Shown here one piece after another: positions 1 to 21,374 of a stretch of 64,000 bases of DNA. Under the pieces are notes generated by a model. It had not been told where the DNA came from, did not search any database, and was given only the letters and a program-made list of their open reading frames with translations. The first letter of the stretch is position 1, and the number at the start of each line of letters is the position of its first letter. Source of the stretch: a virus (lineage: Duplodnaviria > Heunggongvirae > Uroviricota > Caudoviricetes); the IMG/VR virus record IMGVR_UViG_2913112809_000002, one strand, 5' to 3'. The translations under genes and the position numbers were made by a program.

Positions 1-639
1 AGACTGGCTGGTAACGGAACGACCGGCACCGATACGTATACCGTTCGCGTATTCGTGCAACCGCTTAACTGCGCCAGAAGGAACGATACGAACAGCGCAA
101 TCATCATCCGCAACAGCCACTTTGATATCTTCCTGGGCTCTCTGTGACTCCAGTGCGATCTGCTGTTTTGCATGCTGGTTAGCCAGGGAGTTAATCTCAG
201 CGACCAACACTGGCTTCGTATAGCGCCATGCCGCCAGCCCTTGTCCGCAGAAGCTCGCCATGTCTTTCTTCTGGTCAAACTCATGACATTTCATGTTGAG
301 CTGCGCACTTAAGCTGTTGCGATGCTGAAGTTCTCCGGTGAAGTAGTCATCCAGGACTTTATAGGCTGCATATTTAAATCCGGGGTTTAGCCATGCTGCA
401 TAATCATAAGCAACAAACTTCCCGCCATATGTTCCACCGTGTACACCGCGCTCAGTAAAAACCACAGATTCGTGGTTTTTCTCCAGCTCGGCTAAGAACT
501 CTTTGGTCTGCTTGTTTCGCAGGTAGTGGTACGGAGATTCAGATTCACTTTTACCACTGGCTTTCCACATATCAGTGAGGCAGATCATGCCATCTTCACC
601 GATACGAATTGGTTGATTGAAGAGGGTTAATGATTTCAT
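1..639 (-). CDS. KilA-N domain protein (antirepressor-like cargo), 3' end cut by window
   Basis: Minus-strand ATG at 639; translation MKSLTLFNQPIRIGEDGMICLTDMWKASGK... has KilA-N signature; open to position 1. Confidence 0.65.
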   Translation of the reverse strand, partial: MKSLTLFNQPIRIGEDGMICLTDMWKASGKSESESPYHYLRNKQTKEFLAELEKNHESVVFTERGVHGGTYGGKFVAYDYAAWLNPGFKYAAYKVLDDYFTGELQHRNSLSAQLNMKCHEFDQKKDMASFCGQGLAAWRYTKPVLVAEINSLANQHAKQQIALESQRAQEDIKVAVADDDCAVRIVPSGAVKRLHEYANGIRIGAGRSVTSQS

Positions 640-791
640 AGCGTGTACCTACTCTTTGAAATGAACCTTTGCCGCACAGGAAACCAGCCCACCGAGGCTC
701 GCCAGCACTAACTGGTATCCTCAAAGGCCCATTCCAAAGGGTCAGGTTCGGTGTTTATTGTGCGCTGCGGTGCGCGGTGAAATACCGGTAC

Positions 792-824
792 AAAAATGCC
801 CCGCATCTGCGAGGCATTTTCCTG
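792..824 (-). terminator. Intrinsic terminator after lysis cassette
   Basis: GC hairpin gccccgca/tgcgaggc followed by T-run on minus strand, just downstream of Rz stop. Confidence 0.4.
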
Positions 825-857
825 AAAGTCACTTGTTAAATTTCAGTGAAATTAAAA

Positions 858-1295
858 TTATTTTAAGCACTGCGTCCTGATGTACTCCTGCAGGTAGTTA
901 ACCTGCGCGGTTATCCTGTCGATTCCACTTCGGAGACGGTAATAATTGAGTTCAGCATCTGCTGTAAGTCTTGGGCTTTCTCCATCGCCCATGCCGCTGG
1001 CTCCGGTCGTTGACTTTGCACAGGTGGCGGCGACTTGCAGGCGCTTACGCCCAGCAGAAACATCAGCACGGAGACTTTCGATAGTCGCGTTAGCATCAGC
1101 AAGCTCCTTTGTGTATCTGGCGTCGAGTTCTGCTACGTCACGTTGACGCTTCTGCATGTCAGCGATTATGGATGCGGCTTTGTCGCGCTGCTCTTTATAG
1201 GCGATGGCGTTATCACGGTAATGATTAACAGCCCATGACAGGCAGACGATGATGCAGATAATCAGAGCGGAGATAATCGCGGTTAACCTGCTCAT
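858..1295 (-). CDS. Rz: Rz i-spanin
   Basis: Translation [30 protein letters not shown]... resembles lambda/P21 Rz; N-terminal TM; start overlaps R stop. Confidence 0.8.
911..1102 (-). CDS. Rz1: Rz1 o-spanin lipoprotein, embedded in Rz in +1 frame
   Basis: Embedded ORF with lipobox LLGVSAC and proline-rich stretch [13 protein letters not shown]. Confidence 0.6.
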
Positions 1296-1789
1296 TGCTG
1301 CCCCCACAAACAGACTTCACGCTCAATCTCACGACGGGTCATCAGCCCTTTCCATTGCTTACCGCCAGCGTATGTCCAGCGACGTAGCTGGTCACATGCG
1401 CCCTTGATATCGCCCTGGTTGATTTTGCGAAGAAGCGTCGATGTTCTGAAATTGCCTGCGCCCACGTTATAGACGAACGAATAAAGAGCGCCGCGCGTTG
1501 TTTCCGGTATATCGACTTTGATGTACGGGTTAATTTGTCTGGCGACCGTGGCAAGGTCTTTATTCAGGAGGGCTTTGCATTCTGCTTCGGTATACGTTTT
1601 ACCGGGAATGATGTCTTTTCCTGTATGCCCGTAACATACAGTCCATACACCAACAATATCTTTGTATGGTATGTAGCTGACACCTTCCAGACCATCGTTA
1701 CCACTTGGTCCAGTGATTAACACAGATGCTATAGCAATAGCCCCGCCACCAATAGCAGCAGCAACGGCTTTTCGTAATGATGGAGGCAT
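1292..1789 (-). CDS. R: SAR endolysin (T4-type lysozyme, phage 21 R-like)
   Basis: N-terminal signal-anchor [20 protein letters not shown] followed by lysozyme E...C/D...T catalytic region. Confidence 0.85.
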
Positions 1790-2004
1790 TATTCACCTCT
1801 CGCAGCCTTTCGTCTGTCTTCTCTGATTTTGAAATACAGATTTGTCAGATAAGTGAGAAAACCCAACACAAGGCTTCCAAGCACTCCAATCGCAGCCCAC
1901 TGTGACGGACTGACCTGATCCAACCACTGCAAAAACCAGTATCCTGCACTACCAGCAGATGTTCCGTAGGCAATGCCAGTTGAGATTTTGTCCATTGATT
2001 TCAT
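1789..2004 (-). CDS. S: Pinholin, phage 21 S-like (dual start MKSMDK)
   Basis: 71 aa, [63 protein letters not shown] matches S21 pinholin as recalled. Confidence 0.85.
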
Positions 2005-2122
2005 AGCAACGCCTCCGCCAGTAACGGATTGCGTAGTTCTTATATTGGGAAGGGGAAAAAAGAAGGCCGCAGCGTAACTATCACTGATGAATTCAGGATA
2101 GCCAGTGGCTACGGCTCAGTTA

Positions 2123-2198
2123 TGGTGCTGGTTAACGGACTTGAACCGCTACCCATTCGCTTACAAGGCGACTGCTCCACCACTGGAGCTAAACCAGC
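2123..2198 (-). tRNA. tRNA-like gene, anticodon UGU (Thr) by manual fold
   Basis: 76 nt; acceptor GCTGGTT/AACCAGC, D-stem GCTC/GAGC, anticodon loop CTTGTAA, T-arm GGTTCAAGTCC, encoded CCA. Confidence 0.55.
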
Positions 2199-2203
2199 AT
2201 ATT

Positions 2204-2278
2204 TGGCGGGACAGCGTGGACTCGAACCACGATAAGAAGGTTAACAGCCTTCCGTAATGACCTTTATACGACTGACCC
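2204..2278 (-). tRNA. tRNA-like gene, anticodon GUU (Asn) by manual fold; one acceptor-stem mismatch, possibly degenerate
   Basis: 75 nt; anticodon stem GAAGG/CCTTC, loop CTGTTAA, T-arm CGTGGTTCGAGTCCACG, 3' GCCA; T:T mismatch at acceptor pair 4:68. Confidence 0.4.
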
Positions 2279-2280
2279 AA

Positions 2281-2341
2281 ATAAAAAATCCCGAAACCGT
2301 TATGCAGGCTCTAACTATTACCTGCGAACTGTTTCGGGATT
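2281..2341 (-). terminator. tR'-like terminator downstream of Q/PR'
   Basis: Inverted repeat tcccgaaac/gtttcggga with inner gcagg/cctgc stem, followed by T-run on minus strand. Confidence 0.5.
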
Positions 2342-2552
2342 GCATTTTGCAGACCTCTCAGCCTGCGATGGTTGGAGTTCCAGACGATACGTCGAAGTGA
2401 CCAACTAGGCGGAATCGGTAGTAAGCGCCACCTCTTTTTATCTCACTACCACAACGAGCGAATTAACCCATCGTTGGGTCAAATTTACCCAACCTTATTC
2501 AAAAAGTCAATATCATGCCGTTAATATGTTGCCATCCGTGGCAATCATGCTG
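2342..2552 (-). promoter_or_regulatory. Late promoter PR' / qut region (inferred from position)
   Basis: Intergenic segment between Q stop and tR'-like terminator, as in lambda. Confidence 0.35.
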
Positions 2553-3176
2553 CTAACGTGTGACCGCATTCAAAATGTTGTCTGCGATTGACTCTTCCTT
2601 GTGGCATTGCACCACCAGAGCGTCATACAGTGGCTTAACAGTGCGTGACCAGGTGGGTTGAGTAAGATTTGGGATTAGCATCGTTACAGCGCGATATGCG
2701 GCGCTTGCTGGCATCCTTGAATAGCCGACGCCTTTGCATCTTCCGCATTCTTTCTCAACAACTCTCCCCCACTGCTCTGTTTTTGCTATATCAACCGCAC
2801 GGCCTGTACCGTGACAATCTCTGCATCTTGCGCCCGGCGTCGCGGCACTACGGCAATAATCCGCATAAGCGAATGTTGCAAGCACTTGCAGTACCTTTGC
2901 CTTAGTATTTCCTTCAAGCTTTGCCACACCACGGTATTTCCCCGATACCTTGTGTGCAAATTGCATCAGATAGTTGATAGCCTTTTGTTTGTCGTTCTGG
3001 CTGAGTTCGTGCTTACCGCAGAATGCAGCCATTCCGAATCCGGCTTGTGATTGCGCCATCCCCATAGCAGCCATCACATCAGTACCAGAAAGAGAGTCAG
3101 AAGCCGTGGCCCGTGGTGAGTCACTCATCATCGGGCTTTTTGGCGAATGAAATTTAGCCACGCTTTCGAGTCTCAT
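2553..3176 (-). CDS. Q: Late antiterminator Q (lambda Q-like)
   Basis: 207 aa, [28 protein letters not shown]... with CxxC...CxxC zinc motif; matches lambda Q as recalled. Confidence 0.85.
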
Positions 3177-3838
3177 GCGCCTTCTCCCTGTACTTGAATC
3201 AATGTGAGGTTTCCGCAGAACACTGCGCCGGTATCGATATACATCTGGTTGGCAAACTTGAGTGGTTTCACTGCTGGCGTATGACCAAAGATGAACGTGT
3301 CCGCGCCTTTGATTTCTTTCACGATCCCGTCTTGTGAGTTGCTGATTCGTTCGCGGTTCCAGATTACCTGCTGATGATCAACTGGCTTTCCAAACTCGTA
3401 TTCGTCACAAGGATAATCGGCGTGGCAGATGACATATTTTTTATCTTTGCTCACCAGTTCGATGATTAACGGAAGTTCATCTGCTTTATGGGCAAGAGCT
3501 TTAGCCAGAATTTCTTTGTCGTAATCGAGATTAAAGAACCAGCCACCGCCATTAAGCATCCAGTGATTGACGTTTCCGCGCTCTGATAAGCCATCAATCA
3601 TCATTTGCTCATGGTTTCCACGTACAGCTCTGAACCAGGGGAATGTGATTAATTCCAGGCATTCGACGTTCTCTGTACCGCGATCGACCAAATCGCCAAC
3701 CGAGATAAGCAGGTCTTTTTTGGTGTCGAATCCTATCGTCTCCAGTTTTTTCATCAGGTTCGTGTAGCATCCGTGCAGATCGCCAACTACCCAAATATTT
3801 CGGTATTTGCTGCCATCAATTTTTTCGTAATAGCGCAT
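3173..3838 (-). CDS. ninI: Ser/Thr protein phosphatase NinI (lambda orf221-like)
   Basis: [23 protein letters not shown]...GNHE metallophosphatase motifs; start chosen at internal Met matching lambda. Confidence 0.85.
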
Positions 3839-4022
3839 CTCTTTCACTCCATCCGCGATGAACCATGAGAACGTCGTTGACGATGGCGTGCATTTTCCCG
3901 TCTTTATCATCAACGTATTTTCTGACCGTACCGCGACTACATTTCAGTCTGCGTGCTACTTCTGTCTGGTTTCCGTATGCTTCAACGAGCATGTCTGGAA
4001 TGGTTTTTACTGAGAACGTCAT
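3816..4022 (-). CDS. ninH: NinH
   Basis: 68 aa [39 protein letters not shown]... matches lambda NinH; 23-nt overlap with ninI as in lambda. Confidence 0.85.
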
Positions 4023-4630
4023 GCGGCCTCACTTCTGCTATTTCGCAGGTCTTTGAGTTTCTGTTGGTACTCTGCCTTGATCGCCTTGCACTCTTCGATA
4101 GTCCAGCGATGGCGGTTATGGTTTGATTCGATTTCGTCTACTGCTTCCTGCCCGATGCGGCTAATCAGTTCGACGCGATACGGAACGAGATTTCCGCTTT
4201 TGTGCTGGTTGCACACCACGCATTGCTTGTGAATATTGCGTTCATCAAATCGGAGTTGAGGTGCCGCAGCAGTTGTCCGGTAATGTCCGGCATCCCACTG
4301 AGCAGACGTGAGCGTTCCGCACGAGATACATGGTAAGTCGCGGTCTCTTTCTCTGATGAAGGCGTTTACGGCTTGTTGGGCTTGTTTAATCCAGTAACTG
4401 CGGGGCTTTAAGGCGAGTTTTCGAATCTTAAGTTTATCTTTCTGTTTCTGCTCCTCTCGTCGTCGTTTCTTCTCTGCTGCTTTTTCCGCTTTTTTGCGTT
4501 CTTTACTTCGTCGTTCGAGTGCTATCTTGGTTCCACACTCTGGAGAGCACCACCACTGATTAGCGAATGCAGGGTGAAACCATTCCCGACATTCATCGTT
4601 TTTACATCGTCTTCGCGCTGGTTTAGCCAT
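4019..4630 (-). CDS. ninG: NinG (Rap recombination endonuclease)
   Basis: 203 aa [33 protein letters not shown]... matches lambda NinG. Confidence 0.85.
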
Positions 4631-4799
4631 CGTCTTCTTCCTCGTACATTGAGCTATTCGGATCGCTCATCAGTTCTGCGCAGCAATCGGAGCACACGTG
4701 AACTTCCAGCACATGCAGCTTCTGACCGCAGTTAGCGCACGTTAAAGCTCGCTCGACGCTTTCTTTCTGGTATTGAAGAGATTGGGATGGACTAAGCAT
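4623..4799 (-). CDS. ninF: NinF
   Basis: Manual translation [58 protein letters not shown] (58 aa, below the ORF-track cutoff). Confidence 0.75.
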
Positions 4800-5217
4800 T
4801 ATTAGCGTCCTGCATCATGAGAAAGACAATCATGGCGGCGCGGAGAGGCGATTCGCCACAGAAGCAGTAGCCAGGAATATTTTCCCATTCCCAACAACCT
4901 TCCTCTAAATCACCTCCTGACCATGCGCACCATTCTTTTTCCGCTGTCATCCACATAGTGCTGATTTTGCTTTCAGTGATAATTGGCCACGCGTATTCAG
5001 GATTATTGCAAGGATTGAAGCAATTCCCGTTTGAAGAACGGAAGCCATTAATATCCCTTTTTTGCGTCTGCCAAATAGGACCTCTTTCGTCAGTGGGGAT
5101 CTCAGAATCGAAGTCTGCTTCGTCATCAGGTATGAAGAAATGCTCCTCCATATCTAAAGCCTCACATACTCGTCTGTTAATTTCAAAATCACTTAACTGT
5201 GAATAATCCATTGTCAT
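4792..5217 (-). CDS. Hypothetical nin-region protein (DUF2591-like by recollection)
   Basis: [31 protein letters not shown]...; compact overlap with neighbours. Confidence 0.45.
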
Positions 5218-5390
5218 TTCCTCGCACGATGTCTTAGCCACCGGATATCCAACAGGTGAGCCGTGTAGTTGAAGGTTTTTACGTCAGATTCTTTTGGGAT
5301 TGGCTTGCGTTTATTTCTGGAGCGTTTCGTTGGAAGGTATTTGCAGTTTTCACAGATTATGTCGGTGATACTTCGTCGCTGTCGTCTCAT
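5214..5390 (-). CDS. ninE: NinE
   Basis: [46 protein letters not shown]... matches lambda NinE; start at internal Met of the ORF. Confidence 0.8.
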
Positions 5391-5797
5391 TCGTACCTCC
5401 TGTCGGTAAATCTGACGCCCTGACCAATAGCCCATGCTGTCGTGTACTCAATCAGACTTGCCATACGCTTCACACTCATCTGCGCGCTACTTTCGCGAAT
5501 GTTGACGTATTCGCCTTCAAGGCCGGGCAAAACATCAGCTTCCTGCTTTGTTGCCACTGCATGACCGCTAATCAACAAAACCTTCCATTGTTCTGGTTTT
5601 AACCACTTATCGCACCATTGAACCTGACGTGCGATATCCGCCAGCATCGCGTGAAATTTTGCGTTCTGGTCAAGGTTGCGCTTGTAGTCAGTAATGCGGA
5701 TGGTGACTGGCTTGTCTTTATCGAGTGGTGTTGCGAGGATGGCATTTATTGCAGCTTGCTGTTGTTGTTTAGTTCGGAGGAAGATTGTTTGCTTCAT
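5387..5797 (-). CDS. ninB: NinB family recombination protein
   Basis: 136 aa with DQN..RQV.W pattern of NinB/Orf family; position upstream of ninE. Confidence 0.6.
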
Positions 5798-6131
5798 CGA
5801 AATTCTTCTCTTTAATTCCAGCGGCTCTGATAGCTTTCATTACTGCAATTACCGTTTTGTCTCTCCCATCCTCATAACCCATCGCATAAGCACCTTCTTC
5901 ACCATCTTTCCAAAAGTCGTCATTCGATTCGGGCCAGTCAATATCCAGTTCAATAGCTGCTCGCGATGCCTGCCACGTTTGCCAGTGGCCTTGAACATCG
6001 TCCATCACGTATTGACCACCAATATCACCACTGCCAATTTCATGGTGATTTTCAGGGTAACGGATAAGGTCTGAGGATTCGCCTCCACGTCGCAACCAAC
6101 TTTCTTCAAACTGCTTTCTTGATTCGTCCAT
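5769..6131 (-). CDS. Hypothetical acidic protein
   Basis: 120-aa ORF in nin-region operon; no recognised domain. Confidence 0.35.
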   Translation of the reverse strand: MDESRKQFEESWLRRGGESSDLIRYPENHHEIGSGDIGGQYVMDDVQGHWQTWQASRAAIELDIDWPESNDDFWKDGEEGAYAMGYEDGRDKTVIAVMKAIRAAGIKEKNFDEANNLPPN

Positions 6132-6148
6132 CGATACTTACCCTCAGT

Positions 6149-6355
6149 TCAACTCACAAAACGCCACGCCATTTTTGCTACAGCGACAGGCATAACACCG
6201 ATAATCACCCACAGGAAAATGCTACCGAAAAGCACACCCACCAGGTCTTTACCTTCGCCTACCAACCGGACAAAACTGCTGGCAACAACAATGAACGTCG
6301 CCACCATCCACATAGCACCGAGAATCCTCAATGCAGAGAAAATTAACTCAGCCAC
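6149..6355 (-). CDS. Small membrane protein (two predicted TM helices)
   Basis: 68 aa, hydrophobic segments MWMVATFIVVASSFV and VLFGSIFLWVIIGVMPVAVA. Confidence 0.4.
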   Translation of the reverse strand: MAELIFSALRILGAMWMVATFIVVASSFVRLVGEGKDLVGVLFGSIFLWVIIGVMPVAVAKMAWRFVS

Positions 6356-6429
6356 GATTTACCCTCCCCCCCAAATAAAAAGGCCTGCGATTACCAGCAG
6401 GCCTGTTATTAGCTCAGTGATGTAGATGG

Positions 6430-7806
6430 TCATACGTCAGCCCCTTGTGCATATCGTCTGCCACGCGCAGCAGGTGCATTTGATGCTGTGCAAATCTGTC
6501 TGGCTTCATCCTGGTCACATGCAACAAAGTGTCCGTTGCAGAACCGCTGGTAAACCGTACCAAGTGAGCCAAAACGGTTTTTCGTCACGATGATTTCAGC
6601 AAATGGCGCGGCGCTACTGTTCTCGTCATATACCGCTTCCCGATAGAGCATGATGATTGAGTCTGCGTCCTGCTCAATGCTTCCTGAATCACGCAAATCT
6701 GCGTTTGTCGGACGTTTGTTTGGTCGCTTCTCAACATCGCGCGAAAGCTGACTCAGGGAGATAACCGGTGTTTTCAGGTCTTTCGCCATCGCCTTCAGGC
6801 TTCCGGAGATGTGAGCAATTGCGAGGTCGTTGCGGTCTGCTTTCGGCTTCTCAATCAGGCCAAGATAATCCGCCATGATGAGTGACAGGTTTGGATTTTC
6901 CTGTTTGTGCCGCTCTGCGATTGAGCGAATTTCTTCGACCGATAACCGCGAGGCATCGACTACCCATACATCCAAATCTGCAAGCTGACTCATGCCGTTA
7001 GCAACACGCGCCCAGCCTTCGTCATCCATCGATGCAGGATTTCGCAGCACGCTAACCGACATCCTCCCGGCGTTGGCAATACTTCGCTCTGCAATCTGCA
7101 ATGCGCTCATTTCCATTGAGAAAATCAATACTCCGCGCCGGACGTCAGAACCAGGAATAACACGACTTGCAACGCCTTCGGCAATCTTCAGCGCCAGTTC
7201 GGTTTTCCCCATACCAGGACGAGCGGCGATAATCACCAGGTCTTCTGCGTTCATCCCTCCGGTGATGGCGTCAAGTTCTTCGATTCCGGTCTTCAGGGTA
7301 TCTGACTCTTCTCCGTTCCTCAGACGCCTGTCAAGCGTGTCAGTGTAGTCAGTGATGATTTCCCCTAACCGTACAGGTTTAACCTCGTCACGGGGCTTTC
7401 TGATGGCTGAAAGACGCTTTACAAACTCATCCATCGCCTGACTCGATGCGTCGATGGTTCCGCTCTGAATTGGTTCACGCATTTCATCCATGATTTCCAG
7501 CACCAGACGGCGGTGATAGTTATCCGCGACCATTCCGGCATATCCCTTCAGGTTTGCGGCACTCGGGCAGTTTTTGCTGGTCATCAGGATTGACGTGAAA
7601 TGCTCCTCTCCGCACGCCTCGGCAACCATCAGCGCGTCGATTAGGTTTCTGTTTCGCGCCTGCTTCCGGATAACCTCGAAGGCTTTCCGGTAGAGCGGAA
7701 TTGAAAACGCTTCCGGCTCAAGCGTTGCCAGAACGTCACTGGCAGTTGGTGTTAATCCACCAATCAGCAGGCCACCGATAACGCTCGCTTCGATATCCTG
7801 TTTCAT
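6430..7806 (-). CDS. Replicative DNA helicase (DnaB-like, P22 gene 12-type)
   Basis: 458 aa with Walker A GMGKTE and DnaB C-terminal motifs. Confidence 0.9.
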
Positions 7807-8750
7807 GCAATCCCCCTGTCTGCAAACTTTCCTTCCCGTACTCCCGTTAACGAATCTTCCCTCAGCAGGTAATCAAAATCTGCCGTCCAGCCCGTGTCGT
7901 TGTCTCCGAAGTAAAACGGCTTTGCCTGATGCACAAACGCCCTGACATACGCTCTGAAACCGTCCACATTTGGCGTTTTCAGTTGCGGGATGATTTTCTT
8001 CAGGCGGCGTTTGCGTTTCTCGTTGACCGCAACAGCGTGTGGCAGTCTGTCACCGACTTCGGTGTTGTAGGCGTTCAGGAAGGATTCGTAGTCGATTCGT
8101 TCTGCCTTGCGACGTTCAGGTTTAACCTGCCCATCGCCTCCCCCATTGGGGGGTAGGGGGGTATTATTTATATTCTTGTTAATACCTTCTTGTTCATGAT
8201 GTGCGGTTGTTTGTGCGGCTCCATGTGCGCTTTCATGTGCGGCATGTGCCCTGAAAGCCGCGCCATTACTGGCTTCGTCATGTGCGGCTTCATGTGCGGT
8301 TGTTTGTGCGGCTTCATGTGCGGGTGAATCGTCCATTTTTTGAGCATATTCATGGTAATTTGTGATGGTGATCACACGACCTTTTTGCTTCTCTCCATCA
8401 ATGGAGATCATCCCCTCTTTCACAAAAACCTGAAGCATCCGCTCAACCTGATCACGGCTTGCTGGCTTGCCATGCCTGTCGCATAACTGAAGACCTAAAT
8501 CAGCTGCTGTCACAACCAGTTGACCGGGTTGCAGATGCCATTCATGACCTTTGAAATTCGCTTTGTATGGCTTTCTGGCGGCATTCAGGAGAAGGTTTTC
8601 CCACAGGGTGCGAAGATAAACATCTTTCGCCCATGACTGTTTCAGAATGCTCCGGTACAACGGAATGTAACCAGTTTTCTGGTTCTCCATCCTGTTGCTC
8701 CTGCGCTCGTGTGCGGCGCTGAAATCGTAGATTTTTGCTGTATTGCTCAT
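7803..8750 (-). CDS. Replication initiator O-like protein (iterons inside gene)
   Basis: N-terminus [10 protein letters not shown] resembles lambda O; central AHEAA/AHGAA repeats encoded by DNA iterons. Confidence 0.75.
8190..8340. repeat. Iteron array (putative origin) inside O-like gene
   Basis: Direct repeats of catgtgcgg(c)t/gtttgtgcgg units; they also create the spurious HMKPH-repeat ORF 8168..8353. Confidence 0.55.
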
Positions 8751-8752
8751 AA

Positions 8753-9025
8753 CTACCTGCCTTGACGAAAGACCTTAAGAACATCGTTAAACTGACTTAC
8801 GGATATGTCTTCTTTGAGAAGCTTTTCCAGAAATGCGTTTGGAATGAACGTATATCCCTCCTCTTTTGGTAGAGACGGGAGCAACGCCCTCGCCTCAGCC
8901 TTCAGAAGCTCAGTTCTGGCAACTTTCACAAAAGAGATTTGAGTTCTTTCATCAATGGAACGAAGGAAGCGCAAACGCTTAGCTTCTTTGTGTGTATCAG
9001 GTGGATTAAAGCCTTTGTTTCGCAT
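8753..9025 (-). CDS. Hypothetical protein between cII-like and O-like genes
   Basis: 90-aa ORF, compact arrangement. Confidence 0.4.
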   Translation of the reverse strand: MRNKGFNPPDTHKEAKRLRFLRSIDERTQISFVKVARTELLKAEARALLPSLPKEEGYTFIPNAFLEKLLKEDISVSQFNDVLKVFRQGR

Positions 9026-9069
9026 ATAATTACCTCGTTGGATGTTGTTAAAATTCCATTTGTATTTGA

Positions 9070-9345
9070 TCAGAACGCTCGGTTGCCGCCGGGCGTTTTT
9101 TTATTGGTGAGTCCATCCAATGCATACTTAAAAGCCCTGCTAATCGGACTGATGTCTGATGCCATTCCAAAAGCACACAAGACCGAAGCAATAAATCTCC
9201 AGTCCGTTCTGCTTATCTTCGATTCATGACAGCCAATCATCTTTGCCAGACCGCGCTGGGTAAGCGTTGACAGGTTGATGAGTAAATCTGTTTCTGCGCG
9301 ATCAACGTCGCGCTGTGATAGTTTGCTGCAGCTTGTTTGTTCCAT
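9070..9345 (-). CDS. CII-like transcriptional activator
   Basis: 91 aa; HTH-like segment GLAKMIGCHESKISRTDWRF and ...NKKTPGGN resemble lambda CII; correct position. Confidence 0.5.
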   Translation of the reverse strand: MEQTSCSKLSQRDVDRAETDLLINLSTLTQRGLAKMIGCHESKISRTDWRFIASVLCAFGMASDISPISRAFKYALDGLTNKKTPGGNRAF

Positions 9346-9384
9346 TTCTTACTATTTCCATAGGTAAATAATCACTAATACCCA

Positions 9385-9420
9385 TCTTTCGATGAGCGCT
9401 TAATTAGTTACCGCGTTGTC
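9385..9420 (-). promoter_or_regulatory. Candidate nutR (boxA-like CGCTCTTTA plus hairpin with GACAA-type loop)
   Basis: Minus-strand read ccgctctttatc ... accgc-cgacaac-gcggt between cro-like and cII-like genes. Confidence 0.35.
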
Positions 9421-9451
9421 GGCGGTGCAGATTGATAAAGAGCGGTGTTAC

Positions 9452-9679
9452 TTATGCAGCCAGAAGGTTCTTTTTGCTTATTTCAAGCATTTCGCTTGCT
9501 TGATATTTGCCACCAGAAATCTCTTCGATTTTTGATGCGTATTTAGTTTTCCCAAAAAACTCAGTCTTAGGGAGGAAGCCGTTTTTGAGCCACTTATAGA
9601 CAGCCCTTTCGCTAACTCCACAAGCCTTCGCAACTTCAGGGATGCCGACACCTTTAATCGGCTCATCAAGATTTTGCAT
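9452..9679 (-). CDS. Cro-like repressor (HTH)
   Basis: Divergent from cI; MQNLDEPIKGVGIPEVAKACGVSERAVYKWLKNG...; start set at second Met because upstream Met lies inside operator palindrome. Confidence 0.5.
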   Translation of the reverse strand: MQNLDEPIKGVGIPEVAKACGVSERAVYKWLKNGFLPKTEFFGKTKYASKIEEISGGKYQASEMLEISKKNLLAA

Positions 9680-9757
9680 AGGAATATCCTTTTTCGTACT
9701 TTCAGTACGCATTATGATTGAACTGAAAGTTTTTGCAAGTGCTTTAGTATCGTACTC
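9680..9757. promoter_or_regulatory. OR operator/promoter region (PR/PRM)
   Basis: Perfect palindrome cgtactttcagtacg at 9695..9709 plus half-sites actgaaagt (9722..9730) and cgtac (9751..9755) between cro-like and cI. Confidence 0.55.
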
Positions 9758-10465
9758 ATGGTTCAGAATGAAAAAGTGCGCAAAGAATTCGCCCAGCGGC
9801 TAGCGCAAGCCTGTAAAGAAGCTGGTCTTGATGAACATGGTAGGGGGATGGCCATAGCCCGTGCCCTTTCTCTTTCGTCCAAAGGCGTTAGCAAATGGTT
9901 TAATGCTGAGTCTTTACCGCGTCAGGAAAAAATGAATGCGCTTGCGAAATTTCTAAACGTTGATGTTGTTTGGCTTCAGCACGGCACTTCGTTAAATGGA
10001 GCGAATGATGAAGATACTCTTTCATTTGTTGGCAAATTAAAAAAAGGGTTAGTGCGCGTGGTTGGTGAGGCAATTCTTGGTGTTGATGGTGCCATCGAGA
10101 TGACCGAAGAGCGCGATGGGTGGCTCAAAATTTATAGCGATGATCCTGATGCCTTTGGTCTTCGTGTGAAAGGAGACAGCATGTGGCCCAGAATAAAATC
10201 AGGAGAATATGTACTCATTGAGCCTAACACCAAAGTATTCCCGGGTGATGAGGTGTTTGTCAGAACCATCGAAGGACACAACATGATCAAGGTTCTTGGC
10301 TATGACAGAGATGGAGAATACCAATTTACAAGCATCAACCAGGACCACAGACCAATAACGTTGCCTTATCATCAAGTAGCCAAAGTGGAGTATGTGGCTG
10401 GTATTCTGAAGCAATCTCGCCATCTGGATGACATCGAGGCAAGGGAGTGGCTGAGAGATTCCTGA
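9758..10465 (+). CDS. cI: CI repressor (HTH + S24 LexA-like peptidase)
   Basis: 235 aa; N-terminal HTH, C-terminal GDSM...K autocleavage domain. Confidence 0.9.
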   Translation: MVQNEKVRKEFAQRLAQACKEAGLDEHGRGMAIARALSLSSKGVSKWFNAESLPRQEKMNALAKFLNVDVVWLQHGTSLNGANDEDTLSFVGKLKKGLVRVVGEAILGVDGAIEMTEERDGWLKIYSDDPDAFGLRVKGDSMWPRIKSGEYVLIEPNTKVFPGDEVFVRTIEGHNMIKVLGYDRDGEYQFTSINQDHRPITLPYHQVAKVEYVAGILKQSRHLDDIEAREWLRDS

Positions 10466-10571
10466 CATCAAAGTCATAGAGTGAGTTTTCTAGTTAGAAA
10501 TAGTGGTCAATGGGTACGCGTAGGTAAACCGTTTAAACATAATAAACAAGCCATATAAGATGAAATAAATC

Positions 10572-10928
10572 ATGAGCGATAAAGAGTTTAAAGTACTTAA
10601 TTTTGATGACTTTGCTCATTATTTGAGCACATTGAACGGCGAACAAATTTGTCCAATGTGTATGGAAGAGTCATGGACGCTTTTCACCCCAAACAAGCTT
10701 CCTCCAGAAGACGAGGATAGGTATGTAATAAGTTCTATCCCAGGATCACTTATTTCAAGTAAAAGACCTGAAAAATCAAATCTCTTCTTCAGAAGTTACA
10801 ACAACGATGTCCTCCTGATGCAATGCAGAAATTGTGGATACATGGCATTTTTTAATTATAAAAAAGTCCAAGAAAACCTTGAGTCAGGGGATTATATAAA
10901 AAAAAGAAGATATAGATATGGTGGATGA
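10572..10928 (+). CDS. Hypothetical zinc-ribbon protein (cargo at rexA position)
   Basis: 118 aa, CPMC and CRNC pairs; AT-rich; stop overlaps next start (ATGA). Confidence 0.55.
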   Translation: MSDKEFKVLNFDDFAHYLSTLNGEQICPMCMEESWTLFTPNKLPPEDEDRYVISSIPGSLISSKRPEKSNLFFRSYNNDVLLMQCRNCGYMAFFNYKKVQENLESGDYIKKRRYRYGG

Positions 10929-11410
10929 AAATGACAAATCAGAAGACTGATTTCTTCCGTCCAATGGAGTATGATAACAAATATGAGCAATTTGGTGTTA
11001 TAGAAGCACACAGGAATGGTCGCTCTACTCCGTCATATCAGCCAGGCACCATTGGTAAGGATATCCCGGTTATTATTGCGCATAAGTTAAGCGATCAACC
11101 AGCAGAGGGTGAGTCACAGATGAGCGTAAAATCACTGTCACGTTGGGAGTTTTGGCTAGGGATTTTCACTGCCATTATTGGGATATTTTCCATTGTTGTA
11201 GGAGCAACGTGGACAATTTCTAATAATATCAATGATAAGATTAATGCATCAAGACAAGAGCTAACTGGGAACATCCAATCCAGTCGAGCAGAAATCACGG
11301 CAAGAATTGACAGGCTCGAAGATAAGATGGAGTCTAATTTCAAAGAAACATCATCGAGCCTGTTCAAAATACAGGCAATTCTAGAAGCAAAATCCGACAA
11401 AGAAAAATAA
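10925..11410 (+). CDS. Hypothetical single-pass membrane protein with coiled-coil C-terminus (cargo at rexB position)
   Basis: 161 aa, TM segment WEFWLGIFTAIIGIFSIVVGATW, heptad-like C-terminus; followed by terminator. Confidence 0.55.
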   Translation: MKMTNQKTDFFRPMEYDNKYEQFGVIEAHRNGRSTPSYQPGTIGKDIPVIIAHKLSDQPAEGESQMSVKSLSRWEFWLGIFTAIIGIFSIVVGATWTISNNINDKINASRQELTGNIQSSRAEITARIDRLEDKMESNFKETSSSLFKIQAILEAKSDKEK

Positions 11411-11714: not shown

Positions 11715-11751
11715 CATGCTCTTTAACTTCGATGGGGCGCTGACAAAGCGC
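11715..11751 (+). promoter_or_regulatory. nutL (boxA gctctttaa; boxB gcgctgacaaagcgc, P22-type)
   Basis: boxB hairpin GCGC-TGACAAA-GCGC at 11737..11751 upstream of N. Confidence 0.6.
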
Positions 11752-11870: not shown

Positions 11871-12206
11871 ATGACGGTAATCGTGTACGGAAAATCAACA
11901 TTTGCAGGAAATGCCAAAACTCGCCGTCATGAGCGGCGCAGAAAGCTTGCTATTGAGCGTGATGCTATCTGTAACATCATTGATTCTATCTTCGGCACAG
12001 ATAGTGAGGAACCTGTTCAGGAGGCCCCAAGAAAGCGTTTAAGCCTTTCTGAAAAAGCAATATCACTCGGAAGCCTTCGCTGCAAGAAGGCAGAAGAAGT
12101 CGAGCGTAAACAGAACCGTATTTACTACAGCAAGCCACGCAGTGAAATGGGTGTGACCTGTGTCGGTCGCCAGAAAATGAAATTAGGCAGCAAACCACTT
12201 ATTTGA
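11871..12206 (+). CDS. N: Antiterminator N (P22 gene 24-like arginine-rich motif, lambda-like C-terminus)
   Basis: ARM GNAKTRRHERRRKLAIERD; C-terminus YSKPRSEMGVTCVGRQKMKLGSKPLI resembles lambda N; SD gagga before ATG. Confidence 0.75.
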   Translation: MTVIVYGKSTFAGNAKTRRHERRRKLAIERDAICNIIDSIFGTDSEEPVQEAPRKRLSLSEKAISLGSLRCKKAEEVERKQNRIYYSKPRSEMGVTCVGRQKMKLGSKPLI

Positions 12207-15543: not shown

Positions 15544-16108
15544 CATTTCATATGAATACCTCATTAGCAACATTCACTACGATAAAGAAACTGGGGTTTT
15601 CAAGAAGATAATTAAATCAAATAATGGGGATATAATTGGTTTCAAACCAACTGGCTGTACGCACTCGATGGGATACATAAGGATATATATTAATAAAAAA
15701 TGGTATTTAGCGCACAGACTAGCTTGGTTATATGTTACCGGGAAATGGCCAGTAAATGTAATTGATCACATCAACAGAAATAAAGCTGACAACAGGTTTA
15801 TTAACCTACGAGATGTCTCCAGTAGGGAAAACAATAGCAATACAAGTAGAAATAAAGGAACTGAAATAGGCACAGAAAGGTGTGCTTATGGATGGAGAGC
15901 ATACATAGGTGTTAATGGAAAACTACATCACCTTGGCTCATATGCAACATGTGATGGTGCAAAATATGCGTATGCTCTAGCAAAATATCAAGTAGAAATA
16001 TATGGTTACCTGCGCCCCACACCAATCGATTGCAGAAAATTAAATTACGGAAACAGGGGGAATCGTAATGGAAATCCTAAATCAAACCGTCGCAAGTTCC
16101 ATCAGTGA
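15530..16108 (+). CDS. HNH homing endonuclease
   Basis: [16 protein letters not shown]...[20 protein letters not shown] motif; AT-rich insertion-like. Confidence 0.75.
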
Positions 16109-16631
16109 ATCAAAACAAATATCTGAATGCGATGTGGCGGAGTGGGAAGAAATGAAACAAATGTCACTAATTGAGATGGATGGATTTCTGAAAGGTAAAT
16201 GCATCCCAAGTGATTTAAAGGTTAACGAAACAAACGCTGAATATCTGGTGCGTAAATTTGCTGAAGCAGAGGCCAAGTGCGCGGCGCTGGCAGCGGAGAA
16301 TGCGAGACTGAAGGTGATGTGTGAGGACCGCCGCAGGTTCATCATGAAAGGGGTGCAACTGGGGTATATCAAGGTGCCAAAAGCGGAAACAGATCCGGAC
16401 CTTGAGACAATTCGCATTGCTATATCACCACAAAAGCCCATTCCAGCCACCGATGCTTTCCTGGCTGAAGTACGGGCGCAGGGCGTGGAGATGCTGGCAA
16501 AAAATCATCAGAGTATCGTCAATGCACTTAAGGGAGATTCTTTATTTTCTGATGGTGAATACCGACATGCAGCTATTGTTTCCGCAGCTGTATATTTCGC
16601 CGCCCAGCTTCGCAAAGGAGGCAACCAGTGA
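16068..16631 (+). CDS. Ea22-like protein, N/middle part
   Basis: Shares ALAAENARLK..CDDRRRFIM..VQLG.IK...ETIRIAISPQKP motif with 62794..63372. Confidence 0.45.
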   Translation: MEILNQTVASSISESKQISECDVAEWEEMKQMSLIEMDGFLKGKCIPSDLKVNETNAEYLVRKFAEAEAKCAALAAENARLKVMCEDRRRFIMKGVQLGYIKVPKAETDPDLETIRIAISPQKPIPATDAFLAEVRAQGVEMLAKNHQSIVNALKGDSLFSDGEYRHAAIVSAAVYFAAQLRKGGNQ

Positions 16632-17113
16632 CTGGACATGCAACAATCCTCGACATGTGCTGTGGCAGTCGCATGTTCTGGTTCGATAAGAATGACGACC
16701 GGGCGATATTTAGCGATATCAGAAAAGAAGAGCACACATTGTGTGATGGACGACGCCTGATTATCAGTCCTGACCTGATAGCAGATTTTCGAGCATTACC
16801 ATTTGCAGACGCATCGTTTCCGGTTGTTGTATTCGACCCTCCGCATCTTGAGCGTGTTGGTGATAAAGCCTGGATGGGAAAGAAATATGGACGGCTGAAT
16901 AAAGATACCTGGCGTGATGATTTGCGGCAGGGATTTAAAGAAGCCTTTCGTGTGTTGTGGCCACATGGCGTTATGATTTTTAAATGGAATGAAACACAAA
17001 TACCTGTTCGCCAGATATTGGCACTGACCGACAGAAAGCCTGTTATCGGTCAACGAACAGGAAAGGGTGACAAGACCCACTGGATTATTTTTATGAAGGA
17101 GGGCAACCAGTGA
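16628..17113 (+). CDS. Putative DNA methyltransferase
   Basis: SAM-binding-like DMCCGSRMF and catalytic-like VVVFDPPH motifs; GTG start. Confidence 0.5.
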   Translation: MTGHATILDMCCGSRMFWFDKNDDRAIFSDIRKEEHTLCDGRRLIISPDLIADFRALPFADASFPVVVFDPPHLERVGDKAWMGKKYGRLNKDTWRDDLRQGFKEAFRVLWPHGVMIFKWNETQIPVRQILALTDRKPVIGQRTGKGDKTHWIIFMKEGNQ

Positions 17114-17310
17114 GCAAGATTGACTACCAGGAATTGGCTGCTGCTAACGCTTTCTTGGCGGATGTGCGGGCTGGGGCGTTTAACGACCTTTGCGCGGCGT
17201 TTGTCAGGAACGCAAAAATTGCAGGACTGGACGATGGCGATCTCGTTACGGTGAAAGAAGCGACCGATGCTCTGCTGCATTGTGTGGAACAGCTTCGCGC
17301 TCCAGAATAA
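17110..17310 (+). CDS. Ea22-like protein, short C-terminal form
   Basis: MSKIDYQ...AFNDLCAAFVRNAKIAGLDD...DALLHCVEQLRAPE homologous to ends of 62794..63372. Confidence 0.45.
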   Translation: MSKIDYQELAAANAFLADVRAGAFNDLCAAFVRNAKIAGLDDGDLVTVKEATDALLHCVEQLRAPE

Positions 17311-17840
17311 TTAAATTTAGTACTGTAAATAAAATTTAATCCTTAACCGGAGGGATTTCTGCACCCTCAGAACATCAGGAGGCCGCCCGAAAGGGCGGTA
17401 ATAAAAATGGCAGAATTAACTAAAGAATGGTTGCAACAAACAATTACTGATATTCAGGTCAATTGAGGTGAGAAACGCGGATGGAAAATTGTTTAGTGCC
17501 GTATCTGGTGCGGTTCGGGGCGTCGTCGTTAACAGTTGTGCCGCATGTCCTGGTGGCTGACAACGTCATCCCGGCACCGAAACGTCGTACCGGTATTGCA
17601 GCGGCACGCCGTGCAGCAAAGAAACGCAGGAGAGCAAAGCGATGAAAAACCGTAAAGCAAAACTGCTTACAGCAAAGCCCGGGCAGCTTATCCGCATCTC
17701 AAATCGACTTGTTGTTCGTTATGCGCCTTCTGGCCTTGCCAGGTGGTTACCAACGCATTTTTACGGTGTCAGGCGACGTAGAAGTGCGGCACAAAACCGC
17801 TGGAGAAATCACGGTTCTAGGCAAATTAAATGGGAGTGAT

Positions 17841-18059
17841 ATGACTACACTATTCAGGAAAAATTATCCGCGAAAGAGCAGAGCAACAGAATTCCTGTTT
17901 CTCATTCTGTTTATCGTGTTGATGATACCGATATCCCCGTTAATTCTGGTATGGGGAATCGGGAAAATAATTGAGCCAGTTATTGAATTGTATAACGACG
18001 TGGTATGGGCGTCGTTCAACGCACTACACAATAAAATTAATCCGTATAAGGAAAACTGA
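17841..18059 (+). CDS. Small membrane protein
   Basis: 72 aa from MTTLFRKNYP..., TM FLFLILFIVLMIPISPLILVWGIG, SD before ATG. Confidence 0.35.
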   Translation: MTTLFRKNYPRKSRATEFLFLILFIVLMIPISPLILVWGIGKIIEPVIELYNDVVWASFNALHNKINPYKEN

Positions 18060-18060
18060 T

Positions 18061-18591
18061 ATGACCACTATTACGAGAGAAAGCGCGGAGATTAAATCAT
18101 TCATCACTGGCTTCCTGAGCGACGCGGCGCACGATAACCAATCGTCAAACAGTCTGCTTGCTAATGTGTTTCGTATCGCACTGGCATCGCTGGAAGCAGA
18201 GCCGGTGGCGTGGAAGGCAACCTTCACGCAAATTGACAATGAATATAATACGTTCACTGCTCTGTATTCTGACAAAGCAGAAGTCGAACGGTGGGTGCGA
18301 CTGCATGAAATAGGTGACTTTCGGGCAGAAATAACACCGCTTTATACAGCCCAACCAGCGCCGGTAGCTCCAGATGGTTGGATAAGCTGTAGTGATGCAG
18401 TTCCTGCGGAATACTGCGATGTGATTCTTCGCGATGATCTCGGGAATGTATTCCCCGGTTCCTGGGATAAGGTTTTTTGCCCCATTCGTGGCGGGAATAA
18501 GATGGCTTTTGTGGACAAAGACGGCATCGAAGTAGAGAGCTCAACTCACTGGATGCCGCTACCGGAACCACCGCAGGAGGTGAATCGATGA
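18061..18591 (+). CDS. DUF551-like early-left protein
   Basis: MTTITRESAEIKSF...IALASLEAEPVAWK...; paralog of 63470..64000. Confidence 0.55.
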   Translation: MTTITRESAEIKSFITGFLSDAAHDNQSSNSLLANVFRIALASLEAEPVAWKATFTQIDNEYNTFTALYSDKAEVERWVRLHEIGDFRAEITPLYTAQPAPVAPDGWISCSDAVPAEYCDVILRDDLGNVFPGSWDKVFCPIRGGNKMAFVDKDGIEVESSTHWMPLPEPPQEVNR

Positions 18592-18755
18592 CCTGGCCTG
18601 AAGCATTCACAACGGTAGGAATTGCAATGGCGGTGGCGCTGGTGGTGTATTCGATTTGCCGCTGGGGTTGACGTAATTACTAATCCGGGGCTATATTTCC
18701 GACGCGCCAGCAAAATCTGGCGTCGGGATTAGCACCCCGGATGTTTACGGAGCGA

Positions 18756-18781
18756 TATGAGACGCGCCCGCGTCTTTTTTT
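18756..18781 (+). terminator. Intrinsic terminator ending early-left operon
   Basis: agacgcg-ccc-cgcgtct hairpin followed by T7. Confidence 0.55.
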
Positions 18782-18945
18782 CATATCGTTTGCACAGTCA
18801 CATTCGCGATTTATGGCGGGCTGTGTGGGGGAGCCGAAAGGCTCGCCGGTTTCCGTACCCGGTAGTGCTAACCCCGCACAGTTCGCCACCACGATGATTA
18901 GCACCTGACGGTGGCGATAATGTCCAAATGTACGGAGTAATCGTT

Positions 18946-19504
18946 ATGACCACTCAGATTTCTGTCGAAACTCTTTCCCCAATTACACACAACCAAATTC
19001 CCGTTATCACTACCGAGTTACTGGCACAGCTTTACTGTACCGAGATCAACAACATCAAAGTAAATTACACCCGTAATTCCGAGCGTTTTGTTGAGGGTAA
19101 ACACTTTTTCAAGATTGTTGGTGATGAGTTGAAAAAATTTGCGGGTTACTTTAAGTAACTCACAAACGCCTGTTTCCCCCAAAACCCGCTCCCTCATCCT
19201 CTGGACAGAACGCGGAGCAGCCCGCCACGCAAAAATGCTGGAAACCGAGCAGGCGTGGGAAGTGTTCGAAAAACTGGAAGACTGTTATTTCAGTCAGAAA
19301 CGCCCGGAAGAAAAAGCACCGGATTTTATGCCACGCCGCTTTCTTCTCACTCTGGTCAATAACCAGTGGTATGTTGAGCCTGTGTCTGCTGATGCGTTTG
19401 TGGCAACGCCGGACTCACTGGTGGCCAGGCTTCAGGCCGAGAGATATCTGTTCGATCAGCAGAGCATAAAGGAGATCATCCAGACCTGCCTGAAGATGAT
19501 TTAA
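18946..19504 (+). pseudogene. ORF6N/Rha-type antirepressor-like gene split over two frames
   Basis: First frame ends ...GDELKKFAGYFK*, second frame continues ...RSLILWTERGAARHAKMLETEQAWEVFEKLED. Confidence 0.35.
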
Positions 19505-19768
19505 AAATTCATTCCGATATGGGAATCCCCATATCGGGAGAATATTACCACCGGGGATAAAATGATTTGCGGTGAAAGGGAAGTTAAGTAGAATTGCTGC
19601 GGGTGCTTGAGGCTATCTGCCTCGGGCATGAATACCAACGGCAGATAGAGAAAAGCCCCAGTTAACATTACGCGTCCTGCAAGACGCTTAACATTAATCT
19701 GAGGCCATATCTATGCGACACATAGAGATTAGCCTCTTACGGACCGAAAGGTCAAGGAGAAGCAGGCT

Positions 19769-19924
19769 ATGAAGCAGCAAAAGGCGATGTTAATCGCCCT
19801 GATCGTCATCTGTTTAACCGTCATAGTGACGGCACTGGTAACGAGGAAAGACCTCTGCGAGGTACGAATCCGAACCGGCCAGACGGAGGTCGCTGTCTTC
19901 ACAGCTTACGAACCTGAGGAGTAA
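19769..19924 (+). CDS. hok: Hok/Gef family type I toxin
   Basis: Manual translation MKQQKAMLIALIVICLTVIVTALVTRKDLCEVRIRTGQTEVAVFTAYEPEE (51 aa). Confidence 0.85.
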   Translation: MKQQKAMLIALIVICLTVIVTALVTRKDLCEVRIRTGQTEVAVFTAYEPEE

Positions 19925-19993
19925 GAGTGACCAGGCGAGGGAGAAATCCCTCGCCGCCTCTGACGTGTCAGGCATTCTCAAAGCACCCGCACT

Positions 19994-20025
19994 TAACCCG
20001 CTTCGGCGGGTTTTGTTTTTTTCTG
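19994..20025 (+). terminator. Terminator-like hairpin after hok
   Basis: cccgcttcggcggg hairpin followed by T-run. Confidence 0.45.
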
Positions 20026-20093
20026 GCATTCTGGTTTACAATCCACTCGTCAGCCTGAACAACTGACACCTGCTGCGCCAGCAGAGAAAACCG

Positions 20094-20372
20094 ATGGCGC
20101 AAAATTCCAGACCACACAATTCTGATAATTCAGCCGTCTTTGCCAGCAGGCACGGGCGGCGTTCCCGCACATTCAAATCTGACTGGTTCCAGCACGACCC
20201 ATGCACTGAAGAACAAGCCGAATGGCTAATTCAGAACTACCGCAGACGTGGGTATGAGTTTCAGAAAGACCTCAGTCTTGACTTCCGACACTGGATAATC
20301 TCAGTCAGGCTGCCGTACTCCGAGCGCCCACCGCGTCCATCCCGCACATTCCAGCAACGGATCTGGAGGTAA
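20094..20372 (+). CDS. Hypothetical protein (position of rem in Qin-type prophages)
   Basis: 92-aa ORF after hok. Confidence 0.4.
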   Translation: MAQNSRPHNSDNSAVFASRHGRRSRTFKSDWFQHDPCTEEQAEWLIQNYRRRGYEFQKDLSLDFRHWIISVRLPYSERPPRPSRTFQQRIWR

Positions 20373-20373
20373 T

Positions 20374-20934
20374 GTGAGAGCATTACTGACACCTGAAATT
20401 GCCCCGCGTATGGGGATCGTACTGTTCAGGCCAGGTTCAGAGCTGATGCCATTGTTTATGCAGGGGCGTGTCTTGCTGGAGCCTGAGCCGGAACGTTATT
20501 CATCTTTTGCCAGTGGTGTCGTTCCGGCGGCATCGCAACCGCTGGCGGATGATCCTGTCGTTCGGGCCGTATTCCGCAATGAGGCAGTGATCCGTCGTGC
20601 AGGTGGCGTGGAATGCCTTGAAAGCTGGTTACTTCGTGAAAAAGGCTGTCAGTGGCCTCATTCTGACTGGCACAGCGAGAACATGACCACAATGCGTCAC
20701 GCGCCGGGAGCAATCCGTTTGTGCTGGCACTGCGATAATCAACTGCGCGATCAGTTCACAGAACGGTTGGAATCAATGGCAACGGATAACTGCGTCCGTT
20801 GGGTGTTGTCTGTTGTCCGTCGGGATCTCGGTTTTGATGAAAGTCACGTTGTGACAATGCCGGAACTGTGTTGGTGGCTGGTTCGTAATGACCTGGCGGA
20901 TGCCTTACCTGAAAGCGCAGCCCGTAGGCTCTGA
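20374..20934 (+). CDS. DUF968-like protein, N-terminal portion
   Basis: 186-aa ORF; may be first half of a split ydfU-like gene. Confidence 0.4.
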   Translation: MRALLTPEIAPRMGIVLFRPGSELMPLFMQGRVLLEPEPERYSSFASGVVPAASQPLADDPVVRAVFRNEAVIRRAGGVECLESWLLREKGCQWPHSDWHSENMTTMRHAPGAIRLCWHCDNQLRDQFTERLESMATDNCVRWVLSVVRRDLGFDESHVVTMPELCWWLVRNDLADALPESAARRL

Positions 20935-20951
20935 GATTACCGAAGCCTGCT

Positions 20952-21362: not shown

Positions 21363-21374
21363 AAGAGGTTACTG

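Follow-up and report, generated by a model that had tools for sequence, protein, structure and literature searches.

A phage-21-type pinholin and endolysin pair between a lambda-type late switch and P22-type spanins in a lambdoid prophage

Introduction

The best described relatives of the locus reported here are the late-gene switches and lysis cassettes of phages lambda, 21 and P22, together with the lysis genes of DLP12, a prophage of Escherichia coli K-12 that is a defective remnant. Phage 21 encodes a pinholin, S21, and a signal-anchor-release (SAR) endolysin, R21. The channels made by S21 are about 2 nm wide and are too small to let lambda R pass (PMC6116005). R21 is exported by the Sec system and its SAR helix, which is not cleaved, keeps the protein tethered and inactive, the collapse of the proton-motive force being the trigger for the release and activation of the SAR endolysin (PMC6116005).

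Here we describe a locus of this kind in a stretch of 64,000 nucleotides (IMG/VR record IMGVR_UViG_2913112809_000002). The whole stretch is referred to as the window and all positions are window positions. Four lysis genes, S, R, Rz and Rz1, occupy positions 858-2004 of the minus strand and belong to an element that is called prophage A in this work. A sequence-only reading had seen in prophage A a case of lambdoid modular mosaicism, with modules from phages 21, lambda and P22, and protein alignments with these three phages bear out most of that description. The locus very probably represents the late-gene switch and the lysis cassette of a lambdoid prophage carried by an Escherichia genome, most likely that of Escherichia sp. 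E4742, and its similarities to the three phages point to a recombinant with two joints.

The pinholin and the SAR endolysin

The region extends from the Rz stop codon (858-860), whose final base is position 858, to the S start codon (ATG, 2004-2002), whose A is position 2004. The S gene (1789-2004) encodes a pinholin/antiholin (class II holin) of 71 amino acids that matches PF04971 ('Bacteriophage P21 holin S') with 122 bits against a cut-off of 26 (E = 8.6e-36). The protein is identical to phage 21 S21-71 at 71 of the 71 positions, and the UniProt entry HOLIN_BPP21 is the same sequence. The dual start that had been noticed in the sequence-only reading is also kept. The N-terminus reads MKSMDK, with Lys2 placed between Met1 and Met4, as annotated for S21-71/S21-68; according to the phage 21 annotation, Met1 gives rise to the 71-residue antiholin and Met4 to the 68-residue holin. 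The GGAGG ribosome-binding site of S is the same as that of phage 21. The first transmembrane domain (residues 8-27) is weakly hydrophobic and rich in glycine, alanine and serine, and the second one (residues 36-57), in which the hydropathy maximum falls, is strongly hydrophobic. Given its complete identity to S21, S would naturally be expected to form pinholes.

The R gene (1292-1789) encodes a SAR endolysin of 165 amino acids of the GH24/T4-lysozyme type (PF00959, 160 bits, E = 4.4e-47). In the protein alignment R is 96.4% identical to R21, in agreement with the phage-21 type that had been proposed for it. Three PDB entries match R over all 165 residues (E about 1e-108): 3HDE, which is full-length R21, 3HDF, which is the active form of R21, and 4ZPU, which is DLP12 RrrD and the best PDB match. 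The SAR helix comprises the N-terminal residues 8-27, 60% of which are glycine, alanine or serine, and residues 1-52 are the same as those of the R21-type RrrD. The catalytic triad is present (E35, D44 and T50), with the spacing of T4 lysozyme. Export of R by Sec and its release upon loss of the proton-motive force would likewise be the natural expectation for a protein with 96% identity to R21. The genes of the cassette overlap and have the same packing as in the reference phages, the S stop and the R start sharing TAATG and the R stop and the Rz start sharing ATGA.

The spanins

Rz (858-1295, 145 amino acids) is an i-spanin of the P22 gp15 type that matches PF03245 (124 bits, E = 5e-36). Rz1 (911-1096, 61 amino acids) is an o-spanin lipoprotein of the P22 type that matches PF06085 (72 bits, E = 2.4e-20). 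The whole Rz1 gene lies inside Rz in the +1 frame (frame offset 1), so that the embedding reported in the sequence-only reading stands. However, the assignment of this pair to the phage-21 type has to be replaced: Rz is 92.4% identical to P22 gp15 but only 57.9% and 56.6% to the Rz proteins of lambda and phage 21, respectively, and Rz1 is 96.7% identical to P22 Rz1 versus 45% to its counterparts of phage 21 and lambda. Rz carries an N-terminal transmembrane segment, its hydropathy maximum being located at residues 4-23, and Rz1 shows a lipobox-like motif (LLGVSAC) that is followed by a proline-rich stretch (KSPPP).

At the DNA level, the window tracks phage 21 up to the end of R and P22 from about the 35th codon of Rz. 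A conserved segment of about 100 nucleotides, which encodes the Rz membrane segment, is common to all four aligned sequences, and the switch from 21-like to P22-like sequence takes place within these first 100 nucleotides or so of Rz. The embedded Rz1 lies downstream of this crossover, and the periplasmic domain of Rz therefore comes from the same source as the Rz1 protein.

The late switch

The Q gene (2553-3176, minus strand) encodes a lambda-type late antiterminator (PF03589, E = 1.3e-57). The match to this family and those of the four lysis proteins to theirs exceed the Pfam cut-offs by a wide margin. The lambda-like Q of the sequence-only reading is amply borne out: 206 of its 207 residues are those of lambda Q (99.5%), identity to P22 gp23 is 97.6%, and the lambda Q structures 7UBM and 4MO1 match the protein from end to end. 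The DNA that follows is also of the lambda type. The promoter pR', the qut/Q-binding region, the 6S leader and the tR' terminator were located at 2283-2552 (minus strand) by alignment with lambda, phage 21 and P22. The promoter scan gave the pR' hexamers TTGACT (-35) and TAAATT (-10), from 2510 to 2482. In the four-way alignment the segment that starts at the Q stop codon and runs through pR', the start-proximal AACGAT pause element and the 6S region to the tR' hairpin is lambda sequence with few substitutions. From the T-run of tR' onwards it is phage 21 sequence, through both tRNA genes and up to the ribosome-binding site of S.

These tRNA genes, which were identified with ARAGORN, are those for tRNA-Asn (GUU; 2204-2278, minus strand), directly downstream of tR' as in the phage 21 annotation, and tRNA-Thr (UGU; 2123-2198, minus strand), which lies between tR' and S, as annotated in phage 21 OL657228.

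A stretch of about 60 nucleotides of lambda (about 10950-11015; AACTGAGCCGTAGCCACTG...TACGCTGCGGCCTT) is homologous to the sequence located just downstream of tRNA-Thr, at about 2035-2100 of the window, and to phage 21. Lambda has no tRNA genes there, and this stretch may be the remnant of an ancestral arrangement that did carry them.

The two joints and the predicted working of the cassette

Lambda-like sequence gives way to 21-like sequence at about 2283-2290, within the tR' T-run, a short sequence that lambda and phage 21 share. As judged from the alignments, the cassette is thus a recombinant with two joints, one in this T-run and the other in the conserved first part of the Rz gene. Neither joint separates partners that must interact: qut is kept together with Q, the SAR endolysin with the pinholin, and Rz1 with Rz.

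The lysis mechanism can be predicted from the near-identity of these products to characterised proteins. After induction, the lambda-type Q would load onto RNA polymerase paused at pR'/qut, and the Q-modified polymerase would read through tR', the two tRNA genes, S-R-Rz/Rz1 and the head genes located past the left edge of the window. R would be exported by Sec and remain tethered to the inner membrane, in an inactive form, by its helix rich in glycine and alanine. Meanwhile S would build up as the 68-residue pinholin, restrained by the 71-residue antiholin, whose translation begins at the upstream start. Pinholes of nanometre scale would then be formed by S at a set time, with collapse of the proton-motive force; this collapse would free and refold R, with the consequent degradation of the murein, and the P22-type Rz/Rz1 spanin complex would then disrupt the outer membrane.

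The arrangement in other genomes

The same arrangement is found elsewhere. In E. coli EC45 (NZ_CP059125, 3.219-3.221 Mb) the window segment 800-3200 is fully covered, with 96.9% identity and the same gene order, which is annotated there as antitermination protein, tRNA-Asn, tRNA-Thr, class II holin, lysozyme RrrD, lysis protein and Rha-family regulator. At least 80% of this segment is present in one piece in nine complete E. coli genomes. Two IMG/VR loci, L016 and L045, are collinear with 858-3176 (96.5-97% identity). The exact joint of 36 nucleotides between tR' and the tRNA genes is present in L016, in a further locus (L012) and in EC45, and differs by one base in L045. Escherichia sp. E4742 has proteins identical to R and Rz, which NCBI lists under the names 'lysozyme RrrD' and 'lysis protein'. 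The 36-nucleotide joint gave no exact match in a scan of one genome per species, a null result that reflects a sampling effect and not the rarity of this kind of joint. At the megablast level no phage-collection record covers 80% or more of the segment 800-2600. The idea that this combination had not been seen before was dropped, since it turned up in two IMG/VR contigs and in nine complete genomes of E. coli. The arrangement is inherited and not unique, and it was already present in public genomes, where standard annotation pipelines have named its parts.

A survey of 80 IMG/VR loci encoding S21-like holins showed that holins of this type follow at least three types of Q, namely those of lambda, of phage 21 and of the second Q present in the window (see below), and that they precede spanins either of the 21/lambda type or of the P22 type. 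These loci therefore show the free reassortment that is expected around a conserved core. A strict rule based on the next open reading frame downstream of S caught 32 of the 80 loci: 24 of the 32 have an R21-type SAR N-terminus, one has a different protein of 177 amino acids with a hydrophobic N-terminus, and seven have unrelated, non-hydrophobic products. This tally is no test of a strict linkage between pinholin and SAR endolysin.

The components of the locus are all either well-studied proteins or close alleles of such proteins, and the biology of the locus is known. The relevance of the locus beyond its correct annotation is small. It is a worked example of the textbook rule that lambdoid phages recombine at short conserved sequences located between functional units, so that partners travel together.

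Alternative readings and the fused arm of prophage A

Three observations weigh against a late switch and lysis cassette in working order. The Q-binding region of pR' has about four differences from lambda between the -35 hexamer and position +1, R has six substitutions relative to R21, and the left arm of prophage A has neither integrase nor excisionase, being fused to part of another prophage. As regards the first one, pR'/qut is likely to function despite these substitutions, some of which are common to P22. As regards the third, prophage A may be defective for excision, with its lysis genes unaffected.

The lost integration module is also the starting point for the best of the alternative readings, according to which the cassette would be a decaying remnant in a defective prophage, similar to DLP12, whose sequence has been conserved but is no longer used for phage release. 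Prophage A does lack int and xis, its left arm being joined at about 16.63 kb to the nin region and late half of another prophage, and the RefSeq name of the endolysin, 'RrrD', was taken from the DLP12 gene. However, all four lysis reading frames are intact and keep their overlapping start and stop signals, and S is 100% identical to the functional S21. Intact too are Q, pR', tR', cI, cro, N, both nut sites and the replication genes, and beyond the left edge of the window the terminase, portal and capsid genes are present as a full set. This can be followed in the NCBI draft contig PDHY01000019.1, where the late operon goes on past that edge with genes for a KilA-N protein, Terminase_3, Portal_3, a Mu-F-like protein, capsid and tail proteins. 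A decaying remnant is thus unlikely, and a late switch and lysis cassette preserved in working condition is the preferred reading.

The fusion itself can be placed by comparison with phage HK629, to which the pL arm of prophage A is 97.7% identical from about 12.7 to 16.63 kb. Past this point HK629 has ea genes, xis and int, and the window has nin-region genes as in a lambdoid prophage of E. coli EC21Z-048. The genes around and after the junction (16068-22420, junction at about 16630) are arranged on the same strand in the order methyltransferase, DUF551, ORF6N, hok, a split DUF968 gene, RusA and the second Q (21725-22420). After this Q there come a second lysis cassette, a lambda-like terminase (28301-30746), and head, tail and tail-fibre genes up to 53.5 kb; this part of the window is called prophage B. 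The second late switch and lysis cassette (21725-25228, plus strand) comprises the Q-like antiterminator (phrog_304), tRNA-Thr and tRNA-Gly (22745-22898, plus strand), a TerB-like protein, a holin (24038-24583) and an endolysin (24647-25228). A draft NCBI contig and a Logan assembly, which may derive from the same strain, show this fusion too. The Ead/Ea22-like gene located at the fusion (16068-16631) has 55% identity to another Ead/Ea22-like gene, which belongs to the third prophage region of the window (62794-63372). Direct repeats pair 16283-16486 with 63039-63241 and 17151-17426 with 63214-63489 (84% and 90% identity, respectively). These repeats connect the fusion point to the early part of the third prophage and are a plausible substrate for rearrangement. 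Most likely, the fusion arose when prophages recombined at a gene that they had in common; the integration module of prophage A was thereby deleted and the lysis cassette was left unaffected.

In the fused element the N-antiterminated pL operon of prophage A leads straight into the nin, Q, lysis and lambda-like head and tail genes of prophage B, all on one strand. The element could instead be read as a working composite in which one immunity region (cI, 9758-10465) controls two divergent late regions, but this is improbable, and just as little probability attaches to such a composite using two lysis systems, the S21/R21 pinholin and SAR endolysin on one side and the holin-endolysin pair at 24.0-25.2 kb on the other. 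A deletion scar is more likely than a working composite. Finally, the mixture of lambda, 21 and P22 sequences is most improbable as an assembly chimera of collapsed similar prophages because, although the window contains parts of at least three lambdoid prophages with shared repeats and is prone to misassembly, the same Q-tRNA-S-R-Rz order and the exact 36-nucleotide joint are found in the independent complete genome of EC45 and in IMG/VR contigs, positions 1-11295 are 100% identical to PDHY01000019.1 (GCA_004745255.1) and 99.98% identical to a Logan assembly, and the only internal repeats (16.3-17.4 versus 63.0-63.5 kb, 48.3-48.7 kb, and a 31-nucleotide pair at 8.2-8.3 kb in the initiator gene) leave the lysis cassette free.

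Other features of these prophages were observed. An integrase gene (53847-54866, minus strand) lies 317 bp past the end (53530) of the tail-fibre assembly gene of prophage B, with the third early region beyond it. The late end of one prophage thus adjoins the integration end of another, which is a tandem or circularly permuted order. The DUF968/HNH-like gene mentioned above is split into two reading frames (20374-20934 and 20952-21362, plus strand), and in E. coli the homologue is undivided and about 350 amino acids long; the split gene is probably a pseudogene, or possibly the result of a sequencing error. Between cI and pL/N, in the position that rexA and rexB occupy in lambda, there are two open reading frames on the plus strand. 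The first one (10572-10928) encodes 118 amino acids with a CxxC...CxxC arrangement, and the second one (10925-11410) encodes 161 amino acids with a predicted membrane segment. Neither has a match in PADLOC or Pfam, and in PHROGs they match only families of unknown function. They may be exclusion genes expressed from the prophage.

The nin region, replication genes and N/nut system

Upstream of Q lies the nin region (3173-5797, minus strand, as are all the genes in it), which was annotated with Pfam and with tblastn against lambda, phage 21 and P22. It had been described as lambda ninB to ninI, a description that fits only ninG, ninH and ninI. NinI (3173-3838), NinH (3816-4022) and NinG (4019-4633) are, respectively, 96.8%, 100% and 98.5% identical to lambda. 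NinF (4623-4799) is 96.6% identical to P22 and 85% to lambda. Further upstream are a long allele of NinX (4792-5217), a gene absent from lambda, with 40% identity to P22 NinX, and NinE (5217-5390), which is 98% identical to phage 21. The genes ninE, ninX and ninF are thus nearest to phage 21 or P22. NinB (5387-5797) is a divergent third allele, 38% identical to the proteins of lambda, 21 and P22 and a clear member of PF05772. The genes ninC and ninD are absent, NinC and NinD giving no tblastn match.

The P22-type helicase replication that had been proposed holds for the helicase and only in part for the initiator. The DnaB-type helicase (6430-7806, minus strand; Pfam DnaB/DnaB_C) is of the P22 gp12 type, with 90% identity to gp12. 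The O/gp18-like initiator (7803-8750, minus strand; Pfam Phage_rep_O) resembles P22 gp18 over the C-terminal 126 amino acids only, where identity is 58%.

Both nut sites are of the P22 kind. In nutL (plus strand; boxA 11717-11727, boxB 11737-11751) both boxes are identical to those of P22, boxB (GCGCTGACAAAGCGC) being the exact P22 nutL sequence. In nutR, located downstream of cro (about 9405-9445, minus strand), boxA (CGCTCTTTA) and boxB (ACCGCCGACAACGCGGT) are identical to P22 nutR in the alignment. The N gene (11871-12206, plus strand; PF25694) encodes a protein whose first 75 amino acids are 71% identical to P22 gp24 and whose arginine-rich motif (GNAKTRRHERRRKLAIERD) is identical to that of P22. 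The sequence-only reading had called N and its boxB P22-like, which is right for boxB and for this motif but not for the C-terminus: the last 35 residues or so (VERKQNRIYYSKPRSEMGVTCVGRQKMKLGSKPLI) align with the C-terminus of lambda N and not with P22 gp24. In lambda N, this is the part that binds RNA polymerase. By its alignments, N is an intragenic chimera that combines a P22 boxB-binding N-terminus with a lambda-like C-terminus. The corrections made here to the spanins, the nin region and N add to the evidence for mosaicism and do not weaken it.

Comparison with known phages and prophages

Phage 21 (GenBank OL657228) shares with prophage A the pinholin (100%), the endolysin (96.4%), both tRNAs, and the leader and ribosome-binding site of S, and the DNA is 96.7% identical over window positions 1179-2288. 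However, phage 21 has its own Q21, pR' and Q-binding element, whereas prophage A has the Q, pR' and tR' of the lambda type. The other end differs as well, since phage 21 has lambda-like Rz/Rz1 genes followed by bor and prophage A has P22-type spanins followed by a KilA-N/Rha-like gene.

With lambda, prophage A shares a nearly identical Q, NinG, NinH and NinI and, with few substitutions, the segment from pR' to tR'. In lambda, however, tR' leads to a canonical S105/S107 holin and a soluble R transglycosylase, whereas prophage A turns to the phage-21 type at the T-run. Prophage A also differs in its lack of ninC and ninD and in its ninB allele.

The similarities to P22 include Rz (92%), Rz1 (97%), gp12 (90%), NinF (97%), the identical boxA and boxB of nutL and nutR, and the near-identical arginine-rich motif of N, as well as the presence in both of a Rha/KilA-N-type gene after the spanins. 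However, the holin of P22 (gp13) is of the lambda type and its lysozyme (gp19) is soluble. Moreover, the C-terminus of N in prophage A is lambda-like, its initiator is only partly gp18-like, and its downstream head genes (Terminase_3, Portal_3 and Mu_F) are not P22-like.

The prophage of E. coli EC45 and the IMG/VR loci L016 and L045 have the same series of Q, tRNA-Asn, tRNA-Thr, class II holin, RrrD-type lysozyme and P22-type spanin. In EC45, however, the nin region contains RusA, DUF1364 and KilAC, and the late genes include a P22-like terminase and portal. The essD-rrrD-rzpD genes of DLP12 in E. coli K-12 belong to the same pinholin and SAR-endolysin families as those of prophage A.

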